Source: Spirochaetia bacterium
GTDB taxonomy: Bacteria > Spirochaetota > Spirochaetia > CADAEX01
Length of the DNA stretch: 64,000 nt
Assembly: GCA_045606105.1 (NCBI GenBank)
Contig: JAZURI010000003.1
Location: forward strand, 96,001-160,000
Reading direction: 5' to 3'
The notes below the pieces were generated by a model that was not told the DNA's origin, did no database searches, and worked only from the letters and a program-made list of their open reading frames with translations. This document shows positions 16,650-60,522 of the stretch, piece after piece (positions within the stretch are counted from its first letter, which is position 1; each line of letters begins with the position of its first letter). Made by a program: the position numbers and the translations under genes.

Positions 16650-17978
16650 ATGGAAAAGCCTTCAGCCCTTCTTATTGCACCTCCTGTTTATGACTTTGCC
16701 CTTTTTGACCTTTTTCTCAAGCCCTATGCCCTTCTTAAAATAGGGGCCTACCTTGAGGAAAACGGCTATGATGTTCATCTTATAAACTGTCTCGATTACA
16801 GGGACGAGGAATCGCTCCGTACCATGCGAAGCCCGGCCCGCCGGGAAAACGGCACCGGAAAATTCTTCCGTCAGAGGGCCGAAACTCCGGATATCATTGC
16901 AGGGTACGGAAAATATCTGTTCAGATACGGAATCTCGGAGGAAAGCTTTGAAGCCAAGCTCCGGGCCTTTGGAAAAAAGCCTGATATAGTTCTGGTATCA
17001 TCCGGAATGACCTACTGGTATCCCGGGGTCAGGGAGGCTGTGGAGAAGGTCAGGAAAATATGGCCCGATGCAAAGGTTGCTGTAGGAGGAATCTATGCCA
17101 CACTCATGCCTGAGCATTGTGAACGGGTTGTTGCTCCCGATTTTGTCATCAGGGGAGATGCCCAGGGGGAAAAGGGGCTGAATTATGTTTTCGGGAAGCT
17201 GGGACTTCCTTTGTGTACCGGCTCATGGCGCGATACCATGATGCTCCATCCCGTACTTAAGGATGCTGCCGTGATAAGGATAAACAGAGGCTGTCCCTAT
17301 TCCTGCCATTACTGTGCATCGGCCTGTATCAGCTCCTTTGAGCCGGGCAGCGGAGAAAAGGCTTTTCAGGAGCTTCTTAGGATTCACGGAAAATACGGTA
17401 CCCTCAATTTTGCATTCTATGATGATGCCCTTCTTATAAATAAGGAAAATATCTTTGTTCCGTTTCTGGAAATGGTGGAAAAGTCGGGTCTGAAATTCAA
17501 TTTCTATCTTCCCAACGCTCTTCATCTGGATCGGCTGGACTTTGAGACCGCTTCGCTCATGTACCGGTGCGGCTTCAGGGAAATCAGGGTAGGCTTTGAA
17601 AGCTCCGATGTGAAGTTCCATGAAACAAATGACAACAAGCTGAATCTGGGAACCTTCGGGGAGAAGGTGGATATGCTTTTCAGAAGCGGCTTTACCAAGG
17701 AGAACCTGGGAATATATGTTCTGGCAGGGCTTCCGGGACAGCATGCGGAAGAGGTGGAGGCCTCAATAAGATATCTGGCCGGATTCGGACTCCGGGGAAA
17801 CATAGCCGAGTTCTCCACCGTACCGGGGACAGAGGTCTGGAAGGAATGTGTGGAGAAAAGTATCTTCCCACTGGAAACCGAGCCGGTTTGTCACAACAAC
17901 TCCATTTTTCCGATGCAGTGGGAAGGCTTTACCATGGAGGACATGGCAAGATTAAAGAGGCTTTCTAAAACTCTCTGA
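16650..17978 (+). CDS. B12-binding radical SAM protein
   Basis: RGCPYSCHYC, GGIYAT, GFES. Confidence 0.88.
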   Translation: MEKPSALLIAPPVYDFALFDLFLKPYALLKIGAYLEENGYDVHLINCLDYRDEESLRTMRSPARRENGTGKFFRQRAETPDIIAGYGKYLFRYGISEESFEAKLRAFGKKPDIVLVSSGMTYWYPGVREAVEKVRKIWPDAKVAVGGIYATLMPEHCERVVAPDFVIRGDAQGEKGLNYVFGKLGLPLCTGSWRDTMMLHPVLKDAAVIRINRGCPYSCHYCASACISSFEPGSGEKAFQELLRIHGKYGTLNFAFYDDALLINKENIFVPFLEMVEKSGLKFNFYLPNALHLDRLDFETASLMYRCGFREIRVGFESSDVKFHETNDNKLNLGTFGEKVDMLFRSGFTKENLGIYVLAGLPGQHAEEVEASIRYLAGFGLRGNIAEFSTVPGTEVWKECVEKSIFPLETEPVCHNNSIFPMQWEGFTMEDMARLKRLSKTL

Positions 17979-19647
17979 TCATATCGGTAATGAATTTCAT
18001 GCTGCTGCGGAAAAATTCCTTGGTTTCCACATCAATGCCTGCCTGTTTTGCAACCCCCTTTATATCCATGATTCCGGTACAACCGAGCAGCTTTCTGTAA
18101 AGCTCCGGAAAGTTTTTCCTGTCTTCAAGGTATTTCCTGTAGAGTCCGATGGAGAAAAGCTGTCCGAAGGCATAAGGAAAGTTGTAGAAGCCCAGATCGG
18201 CACTGTAGTAATGACATTTTACCGCCCACATATACGGATGCAGCTGCTCCGGATCCAGGGCATCACCGTAGGTCTTTTTCTGGGCCTTCAGCATGATTTC
18301 TGAAAATTCATCTGCAGAAAGGGCTCCGTCCCTCTTTATTCTTTCGAAAATTTCCTTTTCAAAATAGAATCTGGAAAGGATATCCACAATAACCTGGGTT
18401 ACCTCCTGAAGGAAAAGCTCTGTAATATAGGTCTTTTCAAAGCCCTCTGCCTTTTCAAGAGCAGTGTTGAAAATCAGTGTTTCGGCAAATATGGAGGCTG
18501 TTTCCGCCAAAGTCATGGGATAAGCCCTGGCAAAGGCAGACCTTTTCTTAAGAAGCTCGAAGTGATATGCATGTCCCAGTTCGTGGGCAATGGTTGAGAC
18601 ACCTGACATGGTAGGATTGAAATTGCACATTACCCTGGATTCACCGGCAACCGGGAAGGAGGTACAGTAGGCGCCCCCTATCTTGTTTGCTCTCGGGTCC
18701 TCATCAATCCATCCGTTATCAAAGGCTTTTTCGGCAAATTTACCCATATCCGGGGCAAAGGATGAAAAGGTTTCTGTTATGAATTCCCTGGCATCGGCAT
18801 AGCTCCATTTCCGGGCCTCAAAGCCCTCCTTTGTCAGAGGGGCAAAAATATCGTAGAAGGCCGGCTTTTCAACTCCAAGAAGAGCTCCCTTTTTTCTGAG
18901 ATATTCCCTGAAATGAGGAAGAGATTCCTCCATCACGCTTATCATAGCCCCCAGTGTCTTTGCCGACATGCGGTTCTGAAACAGTGCCTTGTCCAGAGGT
19001 GATTTCCACTTTCTTTTGCCATCCAGGATGATTGCAGTCTTTTTAACACCGTTAAGGGAATAGGCAAGGGGAATTTCCATCTGCTTCCAGGCTTCAAGCT
19101 CCTTTTCCCAGGCCTTCTGTCTTACATTTCTCTCCTTGTCAAAAGCCAGGTTTCTGAGCTCGTTTACTGTTTTCCTGCTGCCGTCATCCCATTCTGATGA
19201 AAGGGCAGATGAAACGGAAGCCTGAAGTCTTGACCAAGCCTCTCCCGAAGCACTCTGCATTTCTGCTGCCAGTCTTTCTTCTTTATCCGAAAGCTGATGC
19301 TTCGCTTCAATGATTGCTTCCTTTATAAAGAGCTTTTTTTCGGGATCGGGAGATCTGTATTTTGATTCAGCCAGCTTTTTTCTGAGATTGGTTTCGATAT
19401 CGGACAGAAGTACATGGCTGTTTTCAAGCTCATCCAGTCTCTTCATGGCAGCCGGATTATTGGTTTCCACTGAAAACAGGGCATAAGCGTGGGAGTAGAG
19501 GGTTTCGTATATATCTGAAGCTTTTCCCAGGAGAGACAGAGCTTTTTCAAAATCAATTTCATTGCCTGCAAGGATGTTTTTCAGCTCCCTGCAGCATTTT
19601 CTGAAAGCACCGAGGCTTGTTTTATTTAGAATATCAAGTTTCCACAT
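17965..19647 (-). CDS. pepF: M3 family oligoendopeptidase F
   Basis: HELGHAYH, LAETAS, FYNFPYAFG; start at MWKLD. Confidence 0.92.
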   Translation of the reverse strand: MWKLDILNKTSLGAFRKCCRELKNILAGNEIDFEKALSLLGKASDIYETLYSHAYALFSVETNNPAAMKRLDELENSHVLLSDIETNLRKKLAESKYRSPDPEKKLFIKEAIIEAKHQLSDKEERLAAEMQSASGEAWSRLQASVSSALSSEWDDGSRKTVNELRNLAFDKERNVRQKAWEKELEAWKQMEIPLAYSLNGVKKTAIILDGKRKWKSPLDKALFQNRMSAKTLGAMISVMEESLPHFREYLRKKGALLGVEKPAFYDIFAPLTKEGFEARKWSYADAREFITETFSSFAPDMGKFAEKAFDNGWIDEDPRANKIGGAYCTSFPVAGESRVMCNFNPTMSGVSTIAHELGHAYHFELLKKRSAFARAYPMTLAETASIFAETLIFNTALEKAEGFEKTYITELFLQEVTQVIVDILSRFYFEKEIFERIKRDGALSADEFSEIMLKAQKKTYGDALDPEQLHPYMWAVKCHYYSADLGFYNFPYAFGQLFSIGLYRKYLEDRKNFPELYRKLLGCTGIMDIKGVAKQAGIDVETKEFFRSSMKFITDMIREF

Positions 19648-19710
19648 ATATAAAATTTCACACAAACAGTTGATAAAGTCAACTTTTTTAAAAAAATTTA
19701 AATTAAGTAC

Positions 19711-19746: not shown

Positions 19747-19756
19747 AGGATTGTGT

Positions 19757-20137: not shown

Positions 20138-20146
20138 GAGAAAAAA

Positions 20147-23872: not shown

Positions 23873-25885
23873 ATGGATAAAACAATGAAAAAGCTTAATG
23901 AAATTCTTATAGATCTTTTGAAAACAGATGATCGCTACTTTACAGCAGAAGGCGAACTTCTTAAAAATGCCGTTTACGAAGACGCTATGAAAATGGATTC
24001 CTCGTTGATTAAATTACTTCTCTCTGATGATACGTGTAAAAGCCGTTTCTTTACGGAAGTTGACGGCGTTTTAGTCTTTGATAAAGTCGGCTTCGGTTGG
24101 GTTATCAACAATCGTCAATTTTTACCGGATTCTTATACTCGATATAAGAATAAGATTGGGCTTACAGATGGCTCTGGCGAGTTCATTTCTACATCCAATG
24201 AAGTTGTACTCGCATTCCCATACAAAGATTGTGTTTTAGAGGGCGGTCAAACAAAAGAAGACCAAAAGAGAAGTGAGATTTTTTATAATGAAACACTTGC
24301 ACCAGACGAAGTAGATAGGCTTCTTTATCCAAAAGTATTTACAGGGGCAAAACGCTATACGAAAGACGGCGTGGAAGATAATATTACTTTCAACGAAAAT
24401 GATAATTTAATCATTAAAGGCAATAATCTGCTTGCGATTGCTTCGCTCTTAAAAAAATACGAAGGAAAAATAAAATGTATTTATATCGATATTCCATACA
24501 ATACGGGTAGTGATAGTTTTGGTTATAATGATAATTTTAATCACTCTACGTGGCTTACATTTATAAAAAATCGTTTAAGTATAGCAAAACAATTATTGAG
24601 AAATGATGGGTGCATTTTTATTCAATGTGACGATAACGAGCAGGCCTATCTAAAAGTGTTATGCGATGAAGTTTTGGGTAGAGAAAATTTTGTTAATTGT
24701 ATTGCTGTAAAAATGAGTGAAGCTACTGGCGTGAAAATGACACACGCTTCCAAAAAGTTGCCAAAACTAAAAGAATATATACTTCTATACAAAAAGAACA
24801 CACTAAGACTTGAAGACATTCGGATTCCAAAAGAAAAATGGGATTCTGAATATAAATTGGTTATAGATGGTATATCAAAGAAAGATTTACAAGAAGTAAA
24901 AAGCATTATATCTAAAGAATCAGTATCCGATGATGATATATTAACCATTGACAATATTTTAAAGAATGCAAAATTTATTTCTGTAAGTAATTTTTTTGTT
25001 AATTTTTCTTCTATGGATGCAGAATCAAAGGAAAAACTTCTATATGAAAATGCTTGGCGAATAGTCAGAGATGTTGCAACAACAGGTAGTGCCAAAAGTC
25101 TTGCTGATGAAAAAAAACTTACTTGTCAAGGCGAAGCTTTTGCGATTAAAACGCCACAGAAAAAATGTTATCTTATAAAAAAAGAGTATAGTGATACATC
25201 AAGTCAACCACGTATAAAACTTCTATTTGCGGATGAATATTTGACATGCAACCCTTGTGATTTTTGGCAAGATATTAAAACGACAGGAATCGAAAACGAA
25301 GGAGGTGTATTATTAACAAATGGTAAAAAGCCTGAAAAATTAATTAGCAGAATAATACAAATGAGTACAACTGCTGGTGATTTGGTATTAGATTTCTTTG
25401 GTGGAAGTGGAACTACAGCTGCAGTAGCAATGAAAATGCAAAGACAGTTTATCGTGTGTGAACAAATACATTCCCACATTGATTTAGAACTCGTTAGGTT
25501 AAACAATGTTTTAATGGGAGACGATACCGGTGTTTCAAAGGAGGTTAATTGGCAAGGTGGTGGCTCTTTCGTTTACTGCGAACTTGCAAAATTGAATCAA
25601 ACATTCGTTGAAGCAATACAGTCGGCAGAAGACGATGAACAACTTGCAAGCGTTTGGTCTGAAATGCGTGAAAGCGGATTTATAAGCAGTTACGTAAAAC
25701 CGAGCGATATAAACCCCGAAATTGAAGAATTTAACGCTCTTTCATTTGAAGATAAAAAGCGTTTGTTTATTGCTGTTTTGGATAAAAATATGCTTTACGT
25801 CAACTATTGCGATATTGATGATGAAAGTTATTCTATTTCCGAAGAAGACAAGGCGTTTACGCATAGTTTCTATAAGGAGTCGTAA
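23873..25885 (+). CDS. mod: Type III R-M methyltransferase subunit Mod
   Basis: IKGNNL, YIDIPYNTG (DPPY variant), KPE, DFFGGSGTT; followed by res. Confidence 0.93.
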   Translation: MDKTMKKLNEILIDLLKTDDRYFTAEGELLKNAVYEDAMKMDSSLIKLLLSDDTCKSRFFTEVDGVLVFDKVGFGWVINNRQFLPDSYTRYKNKIGLTDGSGEFISTSNEVVLAFPYKDCVLEGGQTKEDQKRSEIFYNETLAPDEVDRLLYPKVFTGAKRYTKDGVEDNITFNENDNLIIKGNNLLAIASLLKKYEGKIKCIYIDIPYNTGSDSFGYNDNFNHSTWLTFIKNRLSIAKQLLRNDGCIFIQCDDNEQAYLKVLCDEVLGRENFVNCIAVKMSEATGVKMTHASKKLPKLKEYILLYKKNTLRLEDIRIPKEKWDSEYKLVIDGISKKDLQEVKSIISKESVSDDDILTIDNILKNAKFISVSNFFVNFSSMDAESKEKLLYENAWRIVRDVATTGSAKSLADEKKLTCQGEAFAIKTPQKKCYLIKKEYSDTSSQPRIKLLFADEYLTCNPCDFWQDIKTTGIENEGGVLLTNGKKPEKLISRIIQMSTTAGDLVLDFFGGSGTTAAVAMKMQRQFIVCEQIHSHIDLELVRLNNVLMGDDTGVSKEVNWQGGGSFVYCELAKLNQTFVEAIQSAEDDEQLASVWSEMRESGFISSYVKPSDINPEIEEFNALSFEDKKRLFIAVLDKNMLYVNYCDIDDESYSISEEDKAFTHSFYKES

Positions 25886-25887
25886 GT

Positions 25888-28476
25888 ATGCCTTTCCTTT
25901 TTGAAACAATAGATATATTAAAAAATTACGGGGATTCATACAAAGAACTTCCAACGTATATAAAAGAAAATCTAAATCCTGCATTTGAGTTGCGCCCATA
26001 TCAAGAATCGGCGTTTTGTAATTATATTACATACTTTGAAAGTCCAAAGTTAAAGCAAAGGCCTACGCAAACGCTATTCCATATGGCAACGGGTAGCGGT
26101 AAAACGCTTATAATGGCAGGGCTTATGCTCTACCTTTACAAGCAAGGGTATCGCAATTTCCTTTTCTTTGTAAATTTAAGCAATATCGTACGTAAAACGA
26201 AAGAAAACTTCCTTGCGCAAACATCGTCTAAATATCTTTTTGCTGAAAATTTGATTATCGACGGCGAACGCATTAAGGTAAAAGAAGTTAGCAACTTTCA
26301 AAATACGGACGAAAACGCTATAAATATCTGCTTCACTACTATTCAAGGCTTGCACTCGGATATGTGTGGAGTAAAAGAAAATAGCATTTCTTTTGATGAT
26401 TTTAAGGATAAAAAAGTCGTGCTTATTTCCGATGAAGCACACCATTTAAGCGCAAGCACGAAAAAGCAAGAAAAAGGAGAACAAGAAAATAGCAAGCATT
26501 GGGAATATACAGTTGGTCGTATTTTCGGTGCTAATGTCGATAACGTTCTTTTAGAGTTTACTGCAACTTGCGACGTTAAAAACGCTGAAATTTTAGCAAA
26601 GTATGAAAACAAAATCATTTTTGATTACCCGTTAGCCAAATTTAGAGAAGATTTATATTCAAAAGAAATTAAAACTTTACGCACTGACAGTCCTGTCTTT
26701 GAAAGATCTTTGCAAGCTGTTCTTTTGAGCCAATATCGCTTGAAAGTATTCCAAGACCACAGGCTGAATGTAAAACCCGTTATCCTCTTAAAATCACACC
26801 GCATAAAAGAAAATGCGGATAATATGGCAGATTTTATCAAGAATATTTCTATGCTTACGGGTGCAAAAATACAAGAAGTTTTTGATATGATACGTGGGCA
26901 AGCCCCTGTTATGCAGGAAGCATACGATTATTTTATAAATAATGGCATTACATTTGAACAATTAGCACAAGAGATTAAAGACGATTTTTCAGCTTCGCAT
27001 TGTATTTCCGCTAACGACGATAAAGAAGTCGAAAAAAATCAGTTGCTTTTGAACTCTCTTGAAGATAAAATCAATCCGTACCGTGCAGTATTTGCCGTTG
27101 ACAAATTAAACGAAGGCTGGGACGTCCTTAATCTTTTTGATATTGTTCGTCTTTATGAAACGCGAGATGGAAAGAACGGAAAGCCCGGTGCAGGTACTAT
27201 TTCCGAGGCACAGCTTATTGGTAGAGGTGCAAGATATTGTCCTTTTAAGATTGATGATGAACAACCAAAATATCAGCGTAAATACGATAACGACGTTGAT
27301 AATCAGTTGCGAATTTGCGAAACACTCTATTATCATTGTTGGAACGAACCGAGATATATTAGTGAATTACACACTGCACTGCGAGAAGTCGGTCTTGACC
27401 TTGAAGGTATCGTTACTAAAAGATATAAATTAAAAGATTCTTTCAAAGCCGATGATTTATATCGCACGGGTTACATTTTTACAAACGAAAGGGTATTAAA
27501 AAGTCGTAATGACGTACACGAGCTTTTGCCTTCTGTAAGGGATAAAGTTTATGAGGTAGCGGTCGCAGTTGGAAAAGCCGGTGAAGATGTGGTTTTAGAA
27601 GAAGTTTCTTCCGACGTAAGCGTAAAAACTTATCAATATCTTACAACGTTTAAGGAAATTGCTTCTATAAATTATTCTACCGTAAATCGAGCGTTAAGAC
27701 AGTTTGACGTGTTTAGATTTAACACCTTAAAATCATACTTCCCGAACGTAAAATCAACTTACGATTTTGTAACGGATAGCAATTATTTAGGTGATATTAA
27801 AATCAAGATTACGTCAAAGCACAAAATACCGCCTATGAGCGTTATTTATAAGGCTTGTGTAAATGTTCTTTCTAAAATAGCGGACAAAATCTCTGCAATC
27901 GAAGAAGTGTACGAAGGCACAACAGAGTTCAAAGCTCACCGTATCAGCGAATTTATTCGAGATAAGAGTGTCAACTATACTCCTGTTTTAGGCGGTAAAG
28001 GTATGTCTCAAAACGATTCATCCGTTGGAGTCAATCGTCTCGACCTTTCGGGCGAAGATTGGTTTGCCTTCAACGATAACTTTGGAACTTCAGAAGAAAA
28101 AGCATTTGTATCGTATTTCAAGGGGTATGTCGATAAATTACGCGCCAAATATGACAAGGTCTATTTGGTACGTAATGAAAGACAGGTTCATCTCTATTCT
28201 TTTGAGGGCGGAGAGCGGTTTGAGCCGGACTATATCTTGTACTTGTGTAAAAATCACCCAGATTCGATGGAGCAATTAATTGTATTTGTTGAACCGAAAG
28301 GAACGCATCTTTTGGAAAATGACAAATGGAAAGAAGCTTTCTTGCTCGAGTTAAAAGGAAAGGCTGTTCCTGTTGTAACTTTTGCGGACGATAACGAATA
28401 CAAGATTTGGGGCTTCCATTTCTTTAATACAGAACAAAGAAGCGTAGAATTCGCAGCAGACATGGCAACACTGTAA
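25888..28476 (+). CDS. res: Type III R-M restriction subunit Res
   Basis: LRPYQ, MATGSGKT, DEAH, EGWD, GRGAR; nuclease PDY...EPK. Confidence 0.93.
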   Translation: MPFLFETIDILKNYGDSYKELPTYIKENLNPAFELRPYQESAFCNYITYFESPKLKQRPTQTLFHMATGSGKTLIMAGLMLYLYKQGYRNFLFFVNLSNIVRKTKENFLAQTSSKYLFAENLIIDGERIKVKEVSNFQNTDENAINICFTTIQGLHSDMCGVKENSISFDDFKDKKVVLISDEAHHLSASTKKQEKGEQENSKHWEYTVGRIFGANVDNVLLEFTATCDVKNAEILAKYENKIIFDYPLAKFREDLYSKEIKTLRTDSPVFERSLQAVLLSQYRLKVFQDHRLNVKPVILLKSHRIKENADNMADFIKNISMLTGAKIQEVFDMIRGQAPVMQEAYDYFINNGITFEQLAQEIKDDFSASHCISANDDKEVEKNQLLLNSLEDKINPYRAVFAVDKLNEGWDVLNLFDIVRLYETRDGKNGKPGAGTISEAQLIGRGARYCPFKIDDEQPKYQRKYDNDVDNQLRICETLYYHCWNEPRYISELHTALREVGLDLEGIVTKRYKLKDSFKADDLYRTGYIFTNERVLKSRNDVHELLPSVRDKVYEVAVAVGKAGEDVVLEEVSSDVSVKTYQYLTTFKEIASINYSTVNRALRQFDVFRFNTLKSYFPNVKSTYDFVTDSNYLGDIKIKITSKHKIPPMSVIYKACVNVLSKIADKISAIEEVYEGTTEFKAHRISEFIRDKSVNYTPVLGGKGMSQNDSSVGVNRLDLSGEDWFAFNDNFGTSEEKAFVSYFKGYVDKLRAKYDKVYLVRNERQVHLYSFEGGERFEPDYILYLCKNHPDSMEQLIVFVEPKGTHLLENDKWKEAFLLELKGKAVPVVTFADDNEYKIWGFHFFNTEQRSVEFAADMATL

Positions 28477-28486: not shown

Positions 28487-28731
28487 ATGGGCAAAGGGTG
28501 GTATGCAAGCTGATGGCACATCCAACAACATTGATGGATATGCCGAGAGAAAGTTTGAAGCATTAAAGGAGTACGGAGAAAGATCCTGATGTGCGATATA
28601 TGAAGCTGAAATTAGTTGAAAAATATCCCATCGGACAGTATCCGCTTAAAGAACTCAAAGAAAACGGTCTTACAAGCGTTCAGGGAAGGAGTAAAGCAAC
28701 CGTACATCTGATGAAGTATTTGGAGAAATAA
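28487..28731 (+). pseudogene. Broken/chimeric gene remnant
   Basis: Strong RBS and ATG followed by a stop after 8 codons; other frames give short protein-like pieces ending ...YPLKELKENGLTSVQGRSKATVHLMKYLEK*. Confidence 0.55.
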
Positions 28732-28755
28732 ACAGTTTAAGGAAAATATACGGGG

Positions 28756-29124
28756 TCATTTCCCGCTTACATATTCCACGGCAAAGATCACGGCAACGCC
28801 GGCCAGCAGGCTCAGCAGGATGTAGAGCAGGGCTGTTACCGGATGTCCGGATTTTAACAGGTCTGCCGATTCCAGGGCAAAGGTGGAGAATGTGGTGAAG
28901 CCTCCGCAAAGGCCTACCTTCAGGAACAGCAGCATCTGAGGATTTATCGAATGGTTTCTTGACAGGTATGCCGCTATTATACCGATTGCGATACAGCCGG
29001 CAATATTGATTGAGAATGTCTTGATAGGAAAAATGAAGGATTCGCTTAAAGGAATCAGGCCTATGAGGTACCTGAGCACCGCTCCTGCAAAACCTCCTGC
29101 TCCCACTGCCAGTATTTCTGTCAT
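28756..29124 (-). CDS. crcB: Fluoride efflux channel CrcB/FluC
   Basis: GGFAGAVLRY and GLCGGFTTFSTF. Confidence 0.95.
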   Translation of the reverse strand: MTEILAVGAGGFAGAVLRYLIGLIPLSESFIFPIKTFSINIAGCIAIGIIAAYLSRNHSINPQMLLFLKVGLCGGFTTFSTFALESADLLKSGHPVTALLYILLSLLAGVAVIFAVEYVSGK

Positions 29125-29171
29125 CTCCTCTGTCCCCCCCCCGGTTACCTGCAGAATATATCATCCGGACC

Positions 29172-29652: not shown

Positions 29653-30348
29653 ATGAAATTATCCTTGCTTAAAAACTACTTTACCAAGTTTGAAATCGCC
29701 CTGTGGGTCTCTTCCGTCTCTCTCATTGTCATCTCCTTTCTGCTGTGCCGGAGCGGGGAATACATCAATCTCATTTCATCTCTGGTAGGTGTTTCCTCTC
29801 TCATGCTGTGTGCCAAGGGAAATCCTCTGGGGATGCTCATGATGATTTTTTTCAGCATTCTCTACGGTATCATTTCCTATTCCTTTGCCTATTACGGCGA
29901 GGTGATTACCTATCTGGGAATGTCTGCTCCCATGTCTGTCATTGCATACATTTCCTGGATCCGCAATTCTTATCGGGGACAGAGGTCGGAGGTTGCTGTC
30001 CGTAAGCTCAGGAAAAGGGATATCCTGATTATTGCCCTGGCTGCAGTTGTCATAACTGTTCTTTTCTATCATCTGCTGAAGCATTTCAACAATGCCAATC
30101 TGATTCCCAGCACCTTTTCGGTTACCACCAGCTTCATTGCCGCCTGTCTTACCTTTTTCCGGAGTCCCTGGTTCGCTATGGCCTATGCCCTTAACGACTG
30201 TGTCCTGATTCTTCTGTGGGTAATGGCTGCCTTTGTTGATATTTCATATCTTTCGGTTATCGTCTGCTTTGTTGTTTTCCTGGTAAACGACACCTATTCC
30301 TTCATCAACTGGCGCCGTATGGAAAAGAGACAGCAGAATCAGCTCTGA
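29653..30348 (+). CDS. pnuC: PnuC-family nicotinamide riboside/vitamin transporter
   Basis: AKGNPLG, YYGEVITYL, NDxVLIxLW, C-terminal FINW. Confidence 0.85.
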   Translation: MKLSLLKNYFTKFEIALWVSSVSLIVISFLLCRSGEYINLISSLVGVSSLMLCAKGNPLGMLMMIFFSILYGIISYSFAYYGEVITYLGMSAPMSVIAYISWIRNSYRGQRSEVAVRKLRKRDILIIALAAVVITVLFYHLLKHFNNANLIPSTFSVTTSFIAACLTFFRSPWFAMAYALNDCVLILLWVMAAFVDISYLSVIVCFVVFLVNDTYSFINWRRMEKRQQNQL

Positions 30349-32794: not shown

Positions 32795-32900
32795 TCTTTT
32801 ATTTTATTTTACTGTCGGTACATAGTCAAGGGAAAATAGTATTGACAAACAGTTATCAAAAAATATTAAATTTAACTGCCTGTTTGTGAGGGCAGGCCAT

Positions 32901-44247: not shown

Positions 44248-44321
44248 GGGCCTATAGCTCAGTTGGTTAGAGCCCTCGACTCATAATCGAGTGGTCCCTG
44301 GTTCAAGTCCATGTGGGCCCA
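44248..44321 (+). tRNA. tRNA with CAT anticodon, probably tRNA-Ile2 (lysidine)
   Basis: GGGCCTA/TGGGCCC acceptor, CTCGA-CTCATAA-TCGAG; promoter TTGACA(44210)...TATAAT(44232). Confidence 0.88.
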
Positions 44322-44322: not shown

Positions 44323-44354
44323 AAATCTCCTGTCTTGCAGGAGATTTTTTTTTT
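44323..44354 (+). terminator. Intrinsic terminator after tRNA
   Basis: AAATCTCCTG-TCTTG-CAGGAGATTT followed by a T run. Confidence 0.85.
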
Positions 44355-44364: not shown

Positions 44365-44425
44365 GGTGAGTTGCGTGGGGACAGAGGATATTGCTTGGTG
44401 ATTGCTTGGGGGACAGAGATATTTG
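44365..44425 (+). repeat. Imperfect ~32-bp tandem repeat, each unit carrying GGGGACAGAG
   Basis: GGTGAGTTGCGTGGGGACAGAGGATATTGCTT followed by GGTGATTGCTTGGGGGACAGAGATATTTG. Confidence 0.8.
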
Positions 44426-44472
44426 AAGCAGAACTTCATTAATTTTGTTTAACATTGTTAAAGGAGAAAACA

Positions 44473-44946
44473 ATGGGAAGAAGAAACAGAATCACCGTTG
44501 ATGGCGGAACCTACCATATTATTAACAAAATTAATGAAGAAAAGATGCTTCTTGAATCGTCATTGATCAAGACTTTGTTCATGAAAATAATCAAAGAGGC
44601 AAAATTTCGTAAAAAATTTAGGTTTAGTCTCAAAAATATTACAATTATGGACAATCATATTCATATGATTATAAAAATGGAACAAGGAGAAAGCTTATCC
44701 AGGTTGATGCAGTGGATTTTTTCTGTCTTTGCCCTTCGTTATAATCGAAGATTTAACAGAAAAGGTCATCTTTGGATTGATAGATTCAAAAGTAAGCTTA
44801 TAGAAACTTTATCTGCATATAGGGCAATATTTGAATATATCTGTAATAATCCGGTTAAGGCAGGTATTGTAAAAAGTGCTGAGGATTATATTTTTGGGTT
44901 CTGGCAATTGAGAGGCAACAGCGAATTTCAGGCACTTTTTACTTGA
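44473..44946 (+). mobile_element. REP-associated tyrosine transposase (RAYT, HUH/Y1 family)
   Basis: TYHI, MDNHIH (HUH), GHLW...RFKS, YICNNPVKAG (catalytic Tyr); RBS AAGGAG before ATG 44473; AT-rich. Confidence 0.9.
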
Positions 44947-44977: not shown

Positions 44978-45769
44978 ATGAACCGATTGGAGCTTCTTGA
45001 TAAGGTTTATAATGAATATCATCGGGAGGAGTACATATATCCTGATCCTCTGTCCCCGGTATTATCCTATAAAAACGCCGATGACAGGGAAGTTGCAGCT
45101 ATTATTGCATCTTCTCTTGCTTTAGGACGGGTTGATCTTATCCTTAAAGCGGTAAATTCTGTGCTTTTACCACTCGGCTCTCATCCGGCTTCTGAACTTG
45201 ATTCTCTCTCGGTGTCGGATTTGAGAGAAATTTATCATGATTTCGTTTATAGATTTTTTAAAACCGATGAAATAACCGGTTTTTTATATGCAATTAAGGT
45301 GATACGCGGGGACAGAGGAAGCCTCCAAGCCCTTTTTACCACAAATTACACCCAAGGAAAGGGCATTACAAGCGGTATTACAGCTCTCAGCAATGAAATT
45401 GCCAGGATTTCAGAGGGTAAATCGGCTATGTTGCTCCCATCTCCTGAAAAAGGCAGTGCCTGTAAAAGGGTTAATCTTTTTCTTAGATGGATGGTCCGGC
45501 ATGATAACATTGATCCGGGAGGATGGTCTGATATAAATACCTGTGATTTGTTGGTTCCGGTTGATACCCATATGTATGATATTGCAAAACGTCTCAGGTT
45601 TACATCCAGAAAGACTGCAGATTTCAAAACAGCAGTTGAAATTACTGCCGGTTTTGCAGAAATTGTTCCTGAAGACCCTGTAAAATATGATTTTTCACTT
45701 ACAAGATTGGGAATACATCCTGATCTTGATAAGGAAATATTTAAAAATCTTGATTTTAAAGGAGAATAG
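44978..45769 (+). CDS. TIGR02757/DUF2400 family protein (HhH-GPD-like)
   Basis: [29 protein letters not shown]. Confidence 0.88.
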
Positions 45770-45770: not shown

Positions 45771-45926
45771 ATGAAGTATATCTGTAATCTTTGCGGCTAT
45801 ATTTACGATCCTGCAACAGGAGATCCTGACAGTGGAGTCAAAGCTGGAACAAAATGGGAAAATGTTCCTGCCGATTGGTGCTGTCCTGTTTGCGCAGCAT
45901 CAAAAGACCAGTTCAGCCCGGCATAA
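45771..45926 (+). CDS. Rubredoxin
   Basis: [12 protein letters not shown]...WCCPVC; RBS GGAG. Confidence 0.95.
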
Positions 45927-45938
45927 GCTGCTTTAACC

Positions 45939-45973
45939 GGGGACAGAGGTTTATCTGATAAACCTCTGTCCCC
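45939..45973. repeat. Perfect 35-bp palindrome built from two motif copies (REP-like)
   Basis: GGGGACAGAGGTTTATC-T-GATAAACCTCTGTCCCC. Confidence 0.95.
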
Positions 45974-54341: not shown

Positions 54342-54901
54342 TCATGGATAAAAGAATTCTTGTTCTTCTTGCAGAGGGCTGCGAGGAAATGGAGGTTGTG
54401 ATTCCTTCCGATCTGGCTGTAAGGGCAGGTCTTGATGTTGTAATGGCAGGAATAGAAGGAATCGATATAACAGGTTCCCACGGGATTTCCCTTATTGCAG
54501 ATTGCGAGATCGTTGATATTGCAGATGAAATCTTTGATGCCGTAATCATTCCGGGAGGAATGCCGGGTGCCGAGAACATTGCAAACAATGAGGTTGCCAT
54601 GGAGGTAATCCAGAGGCATGCAGACAAGGAGAAGCTTATCTGTGCCATCTGTGCCGCGCCCGGTGTAGTTCTGGGAGATACCAGAATTCTTGATGACCGT
54701 ATGGTTACCTGCTATCCAGGCTTTGAAAAGCATTTCAACCGTACTGTAACCTATATCGAGGATAAGGTTGCTGTCAGCGGAAATGTCATTACTGCAAAGG
54801 GCCCGGGAGCAGCTTTCCTGTTCGGCCGTGAAATTCTCAAGGCTCTTCTGGGAGAGGTTGTGGCAGACAAGGTTCTGCAGGGAACTTTCTATTCATGCTG
54901 A
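54338..54901 (+). CDS. DJ-1/PfpI (YajL-like) protein
   Basis: GCEEME, PGGMPG, AICAAP. Confidence 0.92.
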   Translation: MIMDKRILVLLAEGCEEMEVVIPSDLAVRAGLDVVMAGIEGIDITGSHGISLIADCEIVDIADEIFDAVIIPGGMPGAENIANNEVAMEVIQRHADKEKLICAICAAPGVVLGDTRILDDRMVTCYPGFEKHFNRTVTYIEDKVAVSGNVITAKGPGAAFLFGREILKALLGEVVADKVLQGTFYSC

Positions 54902-56334
54902 GTATAAACGGCAAAAGCTTTTATCTTGTTGGGATAAAGGGTACAGGGCTTTCTGCCTTTGCCGAGCTTCTGCTTAAATCGGGAGCCAAGGTTACGGGAA
55001 GCGACACAGCGGAGAAATTCTATACCGACGAGGTGCTCCGTTCCCAGGGGATAAGCTTCAGGGAGGGTTTTTCTTCCGAAAATATCCCTGCCGGTATCGA
55101 TTATGTAATTTATTCCTCTGCCTATAATCCGGCTGAGAATCCTGACCTTGCGGAAGCGGTCAGGAGAGGTATTCCCATTATGGAGTACACAAAGGCACTG
55201 GGGGCTTTTTCTGAGGCTTACGATGCCGGGGGAATTGCCGGTGTCCATGGCAAGACTACAACAACTGCAATTACTGGAACACTGCTGAAGGCCCTTGATG
55301 CACCGGCTGCAGTTCTGGCCGGTTCTGCGGTATCCAACTTCGACGGCCGTTCCACCTTTGTGAACGGAAACCGTTTTTTTGTGGCTGAAACCTGCGAATA
55401 CAAGCGCCATTTCATGTCATTCCGGCCGTCCAGGATAATAGTTACAAGCATCGAGCCGGATCACCTGGATTTCTTTCCCACATATGCCGATATTTTCAGC
55501 GCATTTGTGGATTATGCCTTGCTGCTGCCGGAAAACGGGGAGCTGATTTACTGTGCCGATGACAGCGGATGCCGTGAGCTGGCTGCCGTTATCAGGGAAA
55601 AAAGAGCCGATATAGTACAGATTCCTTACGGATTCACTGCAGAAGGGGATTACAGGATTACATCTTCCGGAATCAGGGAAAGCCGTAACTGCTTTACATT
55701 GGCAGGCTTTGATACGGAATTTGCCCTGAGGATACCGGGAGAGCATATTGTTCTTGATTCTGCCGCCGCATTGGCCATGACAGTTTCCATCCTTAAGAAA
55801 TGGAAAGGGGAGCCGGGGACAGAGGAACTGGAAAAAATAAGGAACGGCTTTGAGGAGTTCAGAGGAAGCAAGAGACGCAGCGAAATTCTCGGTACTGCCG
55901 GAGGAATCCTGTTCATGGACGATTATGCCCATCATCCCACAGCCATAAGACTGACACTTGAGGGAATCAGGAGCTTTTATCCGGGAAGGAAGCTGGTGGT
56001 GGATTTCATGTCCCATACCTATTCCAGGACCGAAGGACTTCTTGAGGAATTTGCCTCTTCTTTCGGGGCTGCGGATGAGGTTATCCTGAACAATATATAT
56101 GCTTCGGCCCGTGAAAGGAATACGGATTCCGATCTGGACAGCCGTTTTTACCGGGCCCTGTGCCGGAATCACAATAATGTAAAGTATTTTCCGAAGCCTG
56201 CCGACGGCTTTGATTATCTTAAAACACATTTACAAAGGGACCACATATTCATTACTATGGGTGCTGGAGATAACTGGACTGTGGGAAAAATGCTGTATGA
56301 CTATTTTTCCTGCAAAAAAGAGGCTTTAACATGA
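54895..56334 (+). CDS. murC: UDP-N-acetylmuramate--L-alanine ligase
   Basis: GIKGTGLS, GVHGKTTTT, DDYAHHP, HTYSRT, MGAG. Confidence 0.95.
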   Translation: MLSINGKSFYLVGIKGTGLSAFAELLLKSGAKVTGSDTAEKFYTDEVLRSQGISFREGFSSENIPAGIDYVIYSSAYNPAENPDLAEAVRRGIPIMEYTKALGAFSEAYDAGGIAGVHGKTTTTAITGTLLKALDAPAAVLAGSAVSNFDGRSTFVNGNRFFVAETCEYKRHFMSFRPSRIIVTSIEPDHLDFFPTYADIFSAFVDYALLLPENGELIYCADDSGCRELAAVIREKRADIVQIPYGFTAEGDYRITSSGIRESRNCFTLAGFDTEFALRIPGEHIVLDSAAALAMTVSILKKWKGEPGTEELEKIRNGFEEFRGSKRRSEILGTAGGILFMDDYAHHPTAIRLTLEGIRSFYPGRKLVVDFMSHTYSRTEGLLEEFASSFGAADEVILNNIYASARERNTDSDLDSRFYRALCRNHNNVKYFPKPADGFDYLKTHLQRDHIFITMGAGDNWTVGKMLYDYFSCKKEALT

Positions 56335-57197: not shown

Positions 57198-57718
57198 TGA
57201 TAATTGCAATTTCAGGAAAAAGCGGATGCGGTAATACTACCGTAAGTACAATGCTTGCAGAAAAGCTTAATCTTACCTTGGTGAATTATACATTCAGGAA
57301 TCTGGCACAGGATACGGGAAAGGATTTCAAGGAAATCTGTCAGGCTGCAAAGAGCGATCCCTCCTACGACCGTTATATAGATAATCATCAGGTGGAGCTT
57401 GCCGAGAAGGGAAACTGTGTTCTTGGTTCAAGGCTTGCAATCTGGATGGTAAAGAAGGCTGATCTCAAGGTTTTTCTTACAGCCTCCACCGAGACAAGGG
57501 TAGGGAGAATCCACAACAGGGAGGGTGGTGATATCAATGATGTCCGTGAGGCCACAATCCGCAGGGATGCTTCCGATTCAGCCCGTTATATGGAGCTTTA
57601 TTCCATTGACAACAGCAAATATGATTTTGCCGATCTGGTGGTGGATACCGAAAAGTACAGACCGGAACAGATAGTTGAACTGATAATCGAAGAGCTTAAA
57701 AAAAGAAATATCAGCTGA
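57197..57718 (+). CDS. cmk: Archaeal-type cytidylate kinase
   Basis: ISGKSGCGNTT, SRLAIW, RY..LYSID. Confidence 0.82.
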   Translation: MIIAISGKSGCGNTTVSTMLAEKLNLTLVNYTFRNLAQDTGKDFKEICQAAKSDPSYDRYIDNHQVELAEKGNCVLGSRLAIWMVKKADLKVFLTASTETRVGRIHNREGGDINDVREATIRRDASDSARYMELYSIDNSKYDFADLVVDTEKYRPEQIVELIIEELKKRNIS

Positions 57719-58706
57719 AAGGGGAGATTACCCTTATTCCCGGAAACATTCCGGTTATGACATTTTCGTCTTTTTTCTCGAAAATAAGCTTTACATTGGC
57801 TCCTGCATCAATGGTCACATAGCAGGAGAGACCCTCGTTTCTTGCTTTTGAAACAGCTTTGATTACAGCCAGAGTTTCAGGTTCCCAGTATATGAGAGGC
57901 GGATTTGAGGAAAGCATGCATGCATGCATGGAAAGGGCATTGTTTTCAGAGGTTTTTCCAAGCAGCTCAAAATTCTTTTCATTCAGGGCCTTCAGAATAA
58001 GCTCCATATCTCTTTCAACCTGGGAAGGCCATCTTTCGTAAAGGATTGATGTGCCGGCTGTATGTTCCATTCCCTTTCCGGAGCTCATGCATTTTTTTTC
58101 CGACGAAACAGTAACCAGTCCCAGCCTCAGCTCAGGCCATTCATAAGGGAGCTTTTCCGAGAAGGCATCCATTCCGTCAATCCTCTGTCCCCGATGGTTA
58201 TAAACAAATCCTGTAAAAATACTTCTTGAAGCACTGCGGCTCCCTATTCCGGCCAGCATTGAAAGCTCCCTGCTTCCCAGACCGTATCCGTAAAAGCTGT
58301 CCAGCGCCAATGTCAGTGCGGCAAAGCCTGAGGCTGAGGAGGCTGCTCCGGCTGCAGTAGGTATATTGTTTTCAGTAGCAATTTCCAGGGCAGGTCCTTT
58401 GTCCGGTTTCATGAGAGCGGCAAATCTGTTTATTTTTTCTGCAAAAGGGGAATCTGCCGGAAGCCGGGATCCGTTGAATATGATTATGTTTTCCTTGCCT
58501 GGTGCAGCCTTGACCGATGTTAATGTTCCGCAGTTTCCCATGGATACAGAAAGGCTGTCGGTGAGGGGCAGATTCAGCTCCTTGTCCCTTTTTCCCCAAT
58601 ATTTGCAGAGTGCTATGTTGGCAGGGGCAAAGGCTTCCGATTGGTTCTGTATATCAGCTTTCTTTCCATTGATTATTTTTTCGGCATATTCCTTTCTTGT
58701 CAGCAT
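57711..58706 (-). CDS. mvaD: Diphosphomevalonate decarboxylase
   Basis: NIALCKYWGK, PTAAGAASSAS, DAGANVK; start at MLTRK. Confidence 0.93.
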   Translation of the reverse strand: MLTRKEYAEKIINGKKADIQNQSEAFAPANIALCKYWGKRDKELNLPLTDSLSVSMGNCGTLTSVKAAPGKENIIIFNGSRLPADSPFAEKINRFAALMKPDKGPALEIATENNIPTAAGAASSASGFAALTLALDSFYGYGLGSRELSMLAGIGSRSASRSIFTGFVYNHRGQRIDGMDAFSEKLPYEWPELRLGLVTVSSEKKCMSSGKGMEHTAGTSILYERWPSQVERDMELILKALNEKNFELLGKTSENNALSMHACMLSSNPPLIYWEPETLAVIKAVSKARNEGLSCYVTIDAGANVKLIFEKKDENVITGMFPGIRVISPFS

Positions 58707-59611
58707 GTACAGATTCCCTCCTTTGTTATCCTGACCGGAATGTTCAGGAAACCCTCCGGCTTTTTTTCGGGTATTCCCAGCGACAGGACACAATCTCCCA
58801 GACCTGAGCCTGAAATCTTTGCTCCGAGTACATTTCTCTCTTTTCTGAGAGCTTCCGTCATGGTTCTGAGCGTATCATCGCAGACTCCCAGTTCCTCCAT
58901 AAGGGCATTATATTCATCAAAAAGCTTTCCTGTAAGGAAAAAATCCCCTTTTTCCAGGGCAATGGCTGTCTTTTCCGAAACAGAACCCATTTTCCTGTAC
59001 AGCATTTCATATTTTTCCGGATCAGCTTCCGCTTTTTTGTTTACCAGGGCAATGACCTCAGGGGTTTTCATTTTATATCCTGAATAATAGAGATCTATTT
59101 CAGGAAACCAGGCGCAGGGCAATGGAGAAGGTTTTCCGTCCATTTTTATGATACCTCCGAAAACAGAGGCTGCCAGATCGCTTCCGCTTCCTGTTTTCTG
59201 TACACATCGGACCACATCAAGGGCCTGTCTGAAAAGCTCGGAATCAGATAATTCTTTTTCGTATAATAAGTTAAGAGCCTTGCAGATGCTGACTGTAACA
59301 GCGGCTGATGAGCCGAGGCCTGTTTTATGGGAAAACTGGGATTCCGTAGAAATTTTTATTCCGTACTGTGGATTGAAGTTTCTTACAGCTTCGGTGATAA
59401 ATGTGAAATCGGTGCTTCTGACAGGACTGTCCAGATCTGCTTCATAGTTTCCCAAGGCAGATTCTATAATCAGCTTTCTCTTGTTCAGGAGCTCTCCCTT
59501 CAGAAAAATCCTTTTGTCAACGGCACAGGCACAGGCTGAATATCCGTGAAGCACCGCATGCTCCCCGGTCAGCATGAGAGAGCCGGGAGCTGAAACCCTT
59601 ACAACAGACAT
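58700..59611 (-). CDS. GHMP kinase, probable phosphomevalonate kinase
   Basis: APGSLMLTGEHAV, GLGSSAA, GSGSDLA, KISGSGLGDC; position in operon. Confidence 0.8.
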   Translation of the reverse strand: MSVVRVSAPGSLMLTGEHAVLHGYSACACAVDKRIFLKGELLNKRKLIIESALGNYEADLDSPVRSTDFTFITEAVRNFNPQYGIKISTESQFSHKTGLGSSAAVTVSICKALNLLYEKELSDSELFRQALDVVRCVQKTGSGSDLAASVFGGIIKMDGKPSPLPCAWFPEIDLYYSGYKMKTPEVIALVNKKAEADPEKYEMLYRKMGSVSEKTAIALEKGDFFLTGKLFDEYNALMEELGVCDDTLRTMTEALRKERNVLGAKISGSGLGDCVLSLGIPEKKPEGFLNIPVRITKEGICTC

Positions 59612-60522
59612 TCCACCCCTCCGTCGTGAATCCTCACATTGAAAATTGTGTATCCGGCCCTGTCACAGAGCTCTTTAAGCTGCAAACCTCTGTCCCCCAT
59701 ACCGAAAACCAGCCCGATTCCGGCACCGGTTCCTCTTATTGCTCCGGCTCCGCTTATCTTGAATGCACCACCCAGGGCTTCCACCTTTCTTGAGAATTCG
59801 GCAACGGGAGCCGGTACTACCCCGATTTTCTCCAGGAGCCGTTCATTTTCCGTTATGCTTTTCAGGAGCAGGGCTTCGTCGTTTTCCTGCAGGGCTGTCT
59901 CTATGTTTTTTTCTGCTTCGGTAAATTTCTGAAGAAGCTCAGGTGTAAACAGCTTTTTTGTATGGCTGACTGCCTCACCGGTGGTACAGGAGGGTCTGCC
60001 GGTAAAGATTATCGAAAATTCTGGTCCGTTCCCAAGGGTAATGGCAGGTCCGGGAAGTATTTTCCCCTTTTCCAGCTTTACCGTTCCCCCTGAAATGACG
60101 GCAGCAGGATCAAGTCCGCTGGAAGTGCCGTGTACCAGGTTTTCGCAGTCCCGGATGACTTCAACCATTTCATTTTTAGGTATTCTGATACCGTGAAGAA
60201 TACAAAGACCGGCAAATACCGATGTTATGGCAGCGGCCGAGGAGCCCATTCCCGAGCCGGTGGGGACAGAGGATGATATTTCCATATCAGCCCCTTTTGT
60301 CAGTCCGAATCTTTCTTCAAACTTCCTGACGGCATAATAAAGGGGATCGGTATTTTCATTTTCTTTTGATTTTATAGAAATATTTTTTCCGTTATTTTCT
60401 CTTATATGATTTTCCACATAGAGAGTACATGCCGCAGCCAGGGCAGGTGCACCCATGACAACAGCGTGTTCACCTGATATTATAACTTTTCCGGGAACCT
60501 TTATTCTGTACTCTGCTGGCAT
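59599..60522 (-). CDS. mvk: Mevalonate kinase
   Basis: PGKVIISGEHAV, PTGSGMGSSAA, HGTSSGLD, KISGAG. Confidence 0.85.
   Translation of the reverse strand: MPAEYRIKVPGKVIISGEHAVVMGAPALAAACTLYVENHIRENNGKNISIKSKENENTDPLYYAVRKFEERFGLTKGADMEISSSVPTGSGMGSSAAAITSVFAGLCILHGIRIPKNEMVEVIRDCENLVHGTSSGLDPAAVISGGTVKLEKGKILPGPAITLGNGPEFSIIFTGRPSCTTGEAVSHTKKLFTPELLQKFTEAEKNIETALQENDEALLLKSITENERLLEKIGVVPAPVAEFSRKVEALGGAFKISGAGAIRGTGAGIGLVFGMGDRGLQLKELCDRAGYTIFNVRIHDGGVECLL

Follow-up and report, generated by a model that had tools for sequence, protein, structure and literature searches.

In the genome of a Spirochaetia bacterium (G000; 1.465 Mb, 11 contigs), the 11-mer GGGGACAGAGG is gathered around a single gene for a REP-associated tyrosine transposase (RAYT; REP, repetitive extragenic palindrome), with most of its copies lying inside genes. 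The stretch of DNA analysed, hereafter the window, comprises 64,000 nt of contig C3 (C3:96001-160000), and positions below are those of the window unless a contig is named. On balance we lean towards a reading in which the word, written Y-GGGGACAGAG[G/C]-W (Y, pyrimidine; W, A or T), would be the inverted-repeat core of a TIRYT-type RAYT and likely its recognition word on single-stranded DNA, with a RAYT-dependent force keeping the copies in a local halo.

Enrichment of the word

The window holds 21 exact copies of GGGGACAGAGG, 16 on the plus and five on the minus strand, between positions 17825 and 60272, while dinucleotide-preserving shuffles of the same sequence gave a mean of 0.06 and a maximum of two. 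Our recount thus agrees with a preliminary description of this DNA in the number, strands and positions of the copies, and likewise in the flanking bases: the base that follows is A or T in all 21 (and in 32 of 32 copies genome-wide), and the base that precedes is a pyrimidine in 17. Around the 11-mer, conservation is found at these two positions, -1 (Y) and +12 (W), and weakly at +13 (T), but nowhere farther out.

According to gene calls, 17 of the 21 copies are intragenic (14 sense, three antisense) and four are intergenic (40828, 44377, 45939 and 45963). All three frames occur among the sense copies, as GDRG, RGQR and GTE; the tally is 6/3/5 with one and 5/3/6 with the other of two overlapping frames at 29127. 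The antisense copies read SSVP twice and PLSP once. Across contig C3, 25 of 29 copies lie in open reading frames (ORFs) rather than in the extragenic location typical of REPs. The use of several frames and of antisense positions, reproduced here, had been taken in the preliminary description to mean that the constraint acts on DNA and not on protein, and a codon-aware null supports that view. When synonymous codons were shuffled within the 97 ORFs of C3:84-196 kb (a 112-kb region), leaving the proteins unchanged, a mean of 4.6 copies remained, four of them fixed intergenic copies that the shuffle does not touch, compared with 29 observed. Since the enrichment stands above this synonymous-shuffle null, it is a property of the DNA. 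One-mismatch copies number only 30 genome-wide (for 33 possible variants) against 32 exact ones, and show a background-level scatter without clustering; three of them fall inside the halo (44409, C3:163678 and C3:193839).

Clustering around the RAYT gene

The genome contains 32 copies in all, 29 of which lie within C3:84818-195431, that is, within about 56 kb of the RAYT gene, and the other three of which are single copies on contigs C7, C9 and C11. Put differently, these 29 of 32 copies share a span of 110.6 kb, 7.6% of the 1465-kb genome (P = 1e-29), whereas the contigs other than C3, which have the same codon usage, carry three copies in 1234 kb. Measured from the single Y1-transposase gene (C3:140455-140946), the density is 1.25 copies per kb at 0-2 kb, 0.67 at 2-5 kb, 0.30 at 5-10 kb, 0.40 at 10-20 kb, 0.05 at 20-50 kb, 0.30 at 50-60 kb (a five-copy cluster plus one single copy on the other side) and zero at 60-140 kb on the same contig. 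The idea of a genome-marking system, with the motif spread through the genome, is not supported, given this confinement to the neighbourhood of one gene.

The same distribution bears on an alternative that the preliminary description had offered, in which the word would serve as a signal in DNA uptake or recombination, like a DNA uptake sequence (DUS), an uptake signal sequence (USS) or Chi. Like uptake sequences, it is short and exact, arose by substitution and occurs within genes in more than one frame, and G000 has a ComEC-family gene; that check for co-occurrence with competence genes proved uninformative, since such a gene is also present in 10 of 14 control genomes. However, machinery for uptake or repair that works in trans would reach the whole genome, and the even distribution that this predicts is not what the genome shows. 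Moreover, two variants of the word are split by RAYT paralog within one genome, as described below. We regard an uptake or recombination signal as highly improbable and reject it.

The strands on which the copies lie suggest a different reading, in which the copies would converge on the replication terminus and serve in chromosome architecture, as KOPS, Ter sites or matS do. In G000, 17 of 18 copies to the left of the RAYT gene are on the plus strand and seven of 11 to the right are on the minus strand, the switch in motif strand falling near 56-58 kb, and gene orientation flips near 57.7 kb. However, GC skew does not switch at the cluster but remains positive throughout C3:35-230 kb. Exact copies are 23 sense to 5 antisense relative to coding, the same strand bias as in the near-match background (23:6 and 308:100), so that neither replication nor transcription polarity need be invoked. 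In addition, the orientation of copies around the RAYT genes of two other genomes (G001 and G059) is mixed, and several separate halos occur within one genome. An architectural motif therefore appears extremely improbable, and is also rejected. A general polarity of sites towards the RAYT gene was discarded as well, as 24 of 29 copies point inward in G000 but no such polarity was seen in G001 or G059.

The RAYT gene and its unit

The RAYT gene (44455-44946, plus strand) encodes a protein of 163 aa whose sole Pfam domain is Y1_Tnp (4e-15). It scores 85.7 bits against the NCBIfam model for REP-associated tyrosine transposases (NF047646, cut-off 80) but only 32.6 against that for IS200, where the cut-off is 55. 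Its sole match in the PDB is the TnpA-REP protein of E. coli (4ER8), to whose HMH and YIYINP its NHIH and YICNNP motifs align. It thus has both an HUH motif and a catalytic tyrosine in the context Y---NP, which in the accessible text of Quentin (2018; PMC6006769) is the signature of class 2 TnpA-Y1 proteins (RAYTs), that of IS200 being Y---Q. The gene is present in single copy in G000 and, compared with its counterpart in the congeneric genome G005, shows a proportion of non-synonymous differences (pN) of 0.16 and of synonymous differences (pS) of 0.75, indicating purifying selection.

Upstream of the gene lie a tRNA-Met (CAT) gene (44248-44321, plus strand; ARAGORN) and a terminator hairpin with a T-run (about 44326-44354), right after which the RAYT unit starts. 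The left end is marked by an exact copy of the motif (44377-44387, plus strand), 68 nt upstream of the TTG start at 44455, and by a one-mismatch copy, GGGGACAGAGA (44409-44419, plus strand), in direct orientation and 36 nt from the TTG. On the other side, the nearest copy is inverted (45047-45057, minus strand) and lies 100 nt past the RAYT stop, inside the DUF2400 ORF, where it reads PLSP in antisense. In a third member of the genus, G003, the site is empty, with tRNA-Met and terminator followed directly by DUF2400; the insert in G000 is therefore about 630 bp long and holds the RAYT gene only. At the 45047 copy, G003 has the same codons with three substitutions, one amino acid being different, and G005 lacks the copy.

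A second feature nearby is a perfect inverted pair of motifs (45939-45973) with a 17-bp stem and a 1-nt loop, located after a rubredoxin gene. Its predicted DNA fold (-19.8 kcal/mol) is the lowest of all 32 sites, and it looks like a REPIN or a terminator. The rubredoxin gene (Pfam, 1e-23) and the hairpin pair together (45771-45973) lie between DUF2400 and GAPDH, where G003 (locus L060) has only a 72-nt spacer, and hence represent a second insertion beside the RAYT gene. Three of the four intergenic copies had been described as flanking the RAYT gene: this is true of 44377, which is directly beside it, but the pair 45939/45963 is about 1 kb downstream, beyond two genes. Near-identical strains in two public sequencing runs differ from the window by indels at these places: in run X1, 12 nt (GAGTTGCGTGGG) are inserted at 44367, immediately ahead of the upstream copy, and run X6 has small insertions in the hairpin pair, at 45936-45958.

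All six RAYT units that we examined, namely the one in G000 and five in G001 (C4:11.5 kb, C6:25.9 kb, C2, C12 and C50), follow a Rho-independent-type terminator hairpin and T-run, which suggests, as far as sequence context can tell, that such units preferentially target terminators. Searches of plasmids returned only matches of ≤35% identity, and searches of phages returned no match.

Link between word and RAYT in relatives

Among nine genomes of the genus, a close RAYT homolog (55-74% identity) is found in exactly three, G000, G001 and G005, and these three have 32, 33 and 14 copies of the word, respectively (G005 being 74% complete). Enrichment in relatives that lack the RAYT would have argued against a link, but the six genus genomes without it have 0-2 copies. 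In G005 the gene is present in one copy and at the same locus (secF, tRNA-Met, RAYT, DUF2400). When the comparison was widened to 401 genomes of the class, the copy number reached a maximum of 51, and a RAYT homolog (E ≤ 1e-25) was detected in nine of the 10 genomes that have ≥10 copies, as against 69 of the 391 others. In G022 and G059 (another family), the RAYT homologs are only about 35-42% identical, yet are flanked and surrounded by the word; in G059, 24 of 51 copies are on two contigs with RAYT-like genes, 17 of them on a 31-kb stretch around one RAYT copy and seven on the contig of another.

The word also marks the edges of RAYT units. It flanks RAYT copies in four genomes, and in both G000 and G022 it occurs ≤100 nt upstream of the gene. 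Further evidence comes from G001, which has five RAYT copies. Two of its units, on contigs C4 and C6, are identical over about 630 bp, and carry on the left CCTCTGTCCCC, about 22 nt and GGGGACAGAGG, forming an inverted pair, and on the right an inverted copy, CCTCTGTCCCC. Such identical, bounded units mean that the word is the end of an element that behaves in the manner of an insertion sequence (IS).

The paralogs of G001 provide what we consider the strongest single test. Those on contigs C2 and C50 are flanked by a variant with C at position 11, GGGGACAGAGC, of which this genome has 53 copies against none of a reversed control. Contigs whose RAYT units have G-type ends (C4 and C6) contain 19 G and two C copies of the word, whereas those with C-type ends (C2 and C50) contain no G and 16 C copies (Fisher's exact test, 1e-8). 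On contig C12, the ends of the RAYT unit are mixed, and so is the halo (seven G, 10 C). Within one cell, then, each neighbourhood bears the word of its own RAYT copy. Over both variants, 43 of 86 copies in G001 lie ≤10 kb from a RAYT gene. The link to a RAYT put forward in the preliminary description has accordingly gained strong support from the NCBIfam assignment, from the flanking copies in four genomes, from co-occurrence with the RAYT clade and from the match of variant to paralog.

Several observations on related loci may be added. The C variant GGGGACAGAGC is present in G000 in five copies (C3:163678, 208933 and 218667; C5:43840; C11:58104; reversed control, 0), although this genome is without a C-type RAYT; G005 likewise has five copies. 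In G022, four copies of the motif form a short tandem array with 18-21-nt spacing (C22:23816-23883), and three copies lie within 200 bp on its contig C6. A query with the RAYT against genome contigs found few relatives, 17 loci in all, including a record of a Spirochaetes metagenome-assembled genome (L101:8090-11020) whose RAYT is 43% identical. On both sides of that gene are tandem arrays of another word, GGGGACGGTG(gtgtt), which starts with the same GGGGAC but has a different tail; 16 copies occur in the 20-kb locus, 14 of them ≤2 kb from the RAYT gene, direct upstream and inverted downstream, so that the arrays have a classic extragenic TIRtron or REPtron look. A metagenome scan with DUF2400 as query yielded only relatives of ≤48% identity, and the 80 loci contained one core copy in 722 kb.

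Origin, structure and conservation of the solo copies

How did the word come to lie within genes? At six sites in the aspartokinase gene, the carboxypeptidase gene and the spacer beyond, all six alignments with three to five other genomes of the genus are ungapped, and the relatives have partly similar sequence in its place, e.g. GGGGAGCACGG or GAAGAATCGGG. The word has therefore replaced existing codons, changing amino acids. It is the 11-mer itself that holds most of the differences from the orthologs, its immediate flanks aligning normally. Viewed from G001, the result is similar: at 12 of 12 alignable sites, the G000 ortholog is without the word and differs by one to five mismatches (more if gapped), seven of the alignments being ungapped across the 11-mer and five having small gaps. 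As read from these alignments, the solo copies arose by substitution, not by insertion. Intragenic location is also the rule in relatives, in 39 of 49 copies on four G001 contigs and in 15 of 15 on contig C2 of G022 (ORFs of at least 120 aa).

The solo copies are not hairpins. The fold energy of 71-nt windows was -6.6 kcal/mol, the same as for 424 two-mismatch control sites (-6.6; p = 0.35); a search for a hairpin partner at solo sites thus revealed no excess structure, with a strong fold at the 45939/45963 pair only. This lack of a hairpin, unlike the known substrates of Y1 transposases, together with the fact that the solo copies are conserved like functional sites (see below), could point to another host factor, for instance a regional nucleoid or regulatory protein, which binds the word while the RAYT merely uses or mimics it, the solo copies serving a host function without regard to the RAYT. 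A precedent is offered by parS sites, short protein-binding words that lie in genes near the gene for their binder. However, genus members without a RAYT have 0-2 copies, the orthologous positions in G001, G002, G003 and G006 are without the word, and the variant at position 11 follows the local RAYT paralog. Nor does any candidate gene for a binder travel with the RAYT, the unit of about 630 bp being RAYT only. We therefore think such a factor quite improbable.

Conservation could be followed in G005, whose halo genes differ from those of G000 at pS values of 0.56-0.75, i.e. at saturation. Among 15 alignable G000 sites, G005 has the exact 11-mer at nine, the C variant at one and no word at four; at the remaining one a neighbouring copy (84843) aligned instead, which we counted as not shared. 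At 78% identity, an 11-mer has a 6.5% chance of survival, and the probability of at least nine of 15 surviving is 7e-8. Judging by this comparison, the word is under DNA-level constraint in the G000 and G005 lineages, with some turnover. Identity within 200 bp of the sites is lower than at random covered positions (0.734 vs 0.817; p = 3e-5), most simply read as a tendency of the word to settle where proteins are weakly constrained.

The lower identity around sites could instead be a trace of imported DNA, and the G000-G005 comparison offers further reasons to take this seriously. On such an account, an unsampled relative has the word genome-wide, and G000, G005 and G001 acquired the RAYT gene through homologous recombination that also brought in tens of kilobases of donor flank, now seen as the halos. 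The two genomes are indeed a mosaic on the kilobase scale, with 1-kb identities of 0.68-0.99 over C3:76-175 kb and, for example, values that drop from 0.94-0.99 at 96-100 kb to 0.70-0.78 at 100-104 kb, pointing to frequent exchange with diverged DNA; the contigs of G005 are very short here, and the RAYT is patchy in the genus (three of nine genomes). On the other hand, no donor was found, the highest copy number being 51 among the 401 class genomes and 33 among the eight other genomes of the genus, and the concentration of ortholog differences within the 11-mer, between flanks that align normally, does not suit import. Change-points in identity are not at the sites either: jumps at 15 sites were 0.054, compared with 0.048 at random positions (p = 0.33), and motif sites as recombination breakpoints were discarded on that ground. 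Motif-free control stretches are equally diverged, e.g. 72-82% on contig C2. Variant-matched halos at five RAYT loci in G001, two with identical units, would require several separate imports, and import merely shifts the origin of the intragenic copies to the donor. All in all, we judge import unlikely.

We also tried the claim that G000 and G005 have diverged further within the halo than elsewhere in their genomes. The first two controls, at 86-96% against 77-80%, seemed to bear it out, but four more ranged over 72-93%. With C2, which has no motif, among them at 72-82%, we withdrew the claim, and take the whole genome pair to be a mosaic.

Close relatives of the window are also found in public sequencing runs, where 19 of 24 listed (nine studies, animal gut or faeces) contain at least half of the sampled words. 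For four runs from four studies, compared as contigs, long pieces differed from the window by about 0.5-2.6%, and by up to about 6-7% in two pieces from run X16. None of the 40 listed base differences falls within a motif copy (736 further differences are outside the listing), and among the joints listed in the four runs none is at a motif site.

Proposed explanation

Returning to the reading we favour, the RAYT would recognise Y-GGGGACAGAGS-W (S, G or C) on single-stranded DNA, where it would bind the words and perhaps nick and rejoin them, and a force that depends on the RAYT would create or retain words only in DNA that is near, or linked to, the RAYT gene. It is the locality of the halo that calls for a force acting only near the gene or in linkage with it. 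Two forms of the force can be imagined. In one (a), the protein would act preferentially in cis, near its own gene, as several transposases and the HUH protein A of phiX174 do, and this action would be coupled to a bias that creates or restores exact words. In the other (b), selection would act through linkage: if words pay off only together with a matching RAYT, and if the RAYT is patchy and recombination intense, only words that co-segregate with the RAYT would be kept. The data fit both forms alike and do not decide between them. A bolder proposal, that a TIRYT-type Y1/HUH enzyme itself writes or maintains its own 11-13-nt word in nearby coding sequence through a distance-limited, paralog-specific conversion of near-cognate sequences, we hold to be possible but doubtful; if true, it would amount to local, sequence-specific editing of single-stranded DNA by a domesticated transposase, with the halo marking where the protein acts in cis.

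Several points weigh against a RAYT-dependent force. First, to our knowledge no mechanism has been demonstrated that lets a Y1 enzyme, a nuclease or a DNA-binding protein multiply its own sites without inserting DNA, and the hairpins on which characterised Y1 transposases act are missing from the solo copies. Second, a five-copy cluster lies 53-56 kb from the RAYT gene, in aroA and a second aroE/K gene, with one copy in the approximately 37-kb gap between it and the main cluster, so that a smooth decay with distance does not fit. Third, about half of the G001 copies and most of those in G022 are >10 kb from a detected RAYT. Finally, G068 has 18 copies and no RAYT homolog at E ≤ 1e-25, and the genomes compared are kin, so that the p-values overstate their independence.

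RAYTs and TIRYTs are present in about a quarter of bacterial species, going by the accessible part of the literature. The present case offers a handle on what they do in the cell: the word is short, exact and not a hairpin, it occurs naturally with either G or C at position 11, a difference in specificity that within one genome goes with the paralog, and its spatial pattern implies an effect of the protein, or selection on the sites, that is confined to the gene's own neighbourhood. Recognition of a linear word as opposed to a hairpin by a TIRYT, preference for action in cis and sequence change in adjacent genes could all be tested with oligonucleotides and a reporter. There is also a consequence for how selection is read, as a constraint at the DNA level can force amino acid changes in proteins such as aspartokinase, a Mur ligase and the kinases of the mevalonate pathway.

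Motif copies in host genes and other features

The genes that carry the word in the window are ordinary housekeeping genes, two of them for GHMP-type enzymes of the mevalonate pathway. Farthest to the left, a B12-binding radical SAM gene (16650-17978) has a plus-strand copy at 17825-17835 (sense GTE), common to G005, and an unannotated minus-strand ORF (28670-29164) has a minus-strand copy near its 5' end at 29127-29137, also common to G005 but with a different length of the G-run. A PnuC-like transporter gene contains a plus-strand copy (29975-29985, sense RGQR) that is not in G005. These are followed by two plus-strand copies, both reading GTE in sense, in a gene for an AroE/AroK (shikimate dehydrogenase and kinase) fusion (32886-34220), at 33470-33480 and 33842-33852, and by a plus-strand copy in antisense (34873-34883, SSVP) in a CAAX-protease-like gene on the minus strand (34681-35304). 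A second AroE/AroK fusion gene (C3:86456-87703) also has the motif, the two being 22% identical.

Closer to the RAYT gene, the aspartokinase gene has two plus-strand copies, each reading GDRG in sense and common to G005: one at 38609-38619, where the aligned columns of G003, G002 and G006 show GGGGAGCACGG-like sequence, and one at 38990-39000, where relatives have GAAGAATCGGG and similar sequences without gaps. The gene for an S11 D-Ala-D-Ala carboxypeptidase has a plus-strand copy at 39817-39827 (sense RGQR; common to G005), and the carboxypeptidase gene has two more on the same strand at 40559-40569 (sense GTE) and 40593-40603 (sense GDRG), both substitutions relative to G002, G003 and G006. 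By gene calls, the plus-strand copy at 40828-40838 is intergenic, between the carboxypeptidase gene and yajC.

To the right, DUF2400 has, besides the inverted copy already mentioned, a plus-strand copy at 45308-45318 (sense GDRG; common to G005). A Mur-ligase gene (54895-56334) carries one at 55815-55825 (plus strand, sense GTE) that is not in G005, and a diphosphomevalonate-decarboxylase-like gene on the minus strand (57711-58793) carries one at 58182-58192 (minus strand, sense RGQR). Last, a minus-strand GHMP-kinase gene (59599-60522) has two, at 59687-59697 (minus strand, sense GDRG), where G005 has the C variant, and at 60262-60272 (plus strand, antisense SSVP), which is common to G005.

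Two unrelated features were observed in passing. A Type III restriction-modification pair (23873-28476), comprising Mod (N6_N4_Mtase and TypeIII_RM_meth) and Res (ResIII), forms an island of GC 0.35 compared with about 0.46; located within the halo yet free of motif copies, it falls outside the G005 contigs compared. Outside the window, G000 has a CRISPR array (C5:17484-18930) with 24 identical repeats at 61-nt spacing, the repeat end of which we take to resemble Cas12a (type V-A) repeats.

Comparison with known systems

Uptake sequences such as the DUS of Neisseria and the USS of Pasteurellaceae are present in hundreds to thousands of copies, evenly spread and read by the uptake machinery. 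The word described here is like them in being short, exact and born by substitution, in lying in genes in all frames, in having few one-mismatch variants and in its constraint at the DNA level, but is unlike them in having 32 copies, 29 of which surround one gene.

With IS200/IS605 elements, the shared traits are those of the approximately 630-bp unit of G001, which occurs in two identical copies, follows a terminator T-run and has subterminal repeats. On the other hand, the protein has Y---NP, falls under the cut-off of the IS200 model and is not accompanied by tnpB, and copies of an IS leave no exact solo end-cores in neighbouring genes, unlike the RAYT here.

Common to REP/REPIN-RAYT systems (Bertels and Rainey, 2011; Bertels, 2017) and the present case are an over-represented flanking word and a cognate word for each paralog. 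In G000 and G005 the Y1 gene also resembles theirs in being single-copy, apparently vertically kept and under purifying selection, but the five copies in G001, two of them identical, look IS-like. REPs, however, lie outside genes and form palindromic hairpins with a GT[AG]G foot, present genome-wide in tens to hundreds of copies and transposed as doublets, whereas the solo copies described here are non-palindromic, without GTAG, mostly intragenic, local and base-replacing. In the accessible text of the papers concerned, RAYTs are described as disseminating their flanking REPINs throughout the genome, with low 16-mer counts in groups 1 and 4 (Bertels, 2017; PMC5581495), and intragenic REPs are reported as in-frame insertions (Quentin, 2018; PMC6006769).

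The best comparison is with TIRtrons or TIRYTs. In these, a RAYT-like gene lies between inverted repeats that share the core GGGGWSAS and form 'moderately abundant' families in some genomes (Di Nocera, 2013, PMC3733652; Quentin, 2018, PMC6006769; both as far as accessible). The preliminary description had mentioned inverted repeats of the GGGG(A/T)CAG type next to some RAYTs, correctly as these two papers show, and the system is by the same token not undescribed in kind, a RAYT with inverted repeats being a TIRYT or TIRtron. Our element resembles them in its HUH/Y1 gene, in inverted repeats to whose consensus GGGGACAG conforms, in moderate abundance and in the presence of some dimers (here 45939-45973). 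Terminal inverted repeats, which define a TIRtron, are seen in the G001 units on C4 and C6 as an inverted pair upstream and an inverted copy downstream; the ends in G000 differ in having direct copies upstream. Most TIRYTs belong to subclass 2.1, with a median of 238 aa, a C-terminal domain resembling a helix-turn-helix (HTH) and the motif YIELNP or Y[IV]HLNP (same portion of Quentin, 2018; PMC6006769). Unlike these, the RAYT here has 163 aa, no C-terminal HTH domain and YICNNP, and in this key motif alone it resembles subclass 2.4 (YIxNNP). A local halo that is substitution-born, intragenic and paralog-matched appears to be undescribed in the accessible TIRYT and TIRtron literature, though the supplementary repeat and ORF lists of those papers may hold intragenic or local copies. 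Where the repeats of TIRtrons and TIRYTs are described there as flanking or as extragenic families, those around this RAYT are mostly solo 11-13-mers in housekeeping ORFs, kept close to the gene and matched to its own variant of the word.

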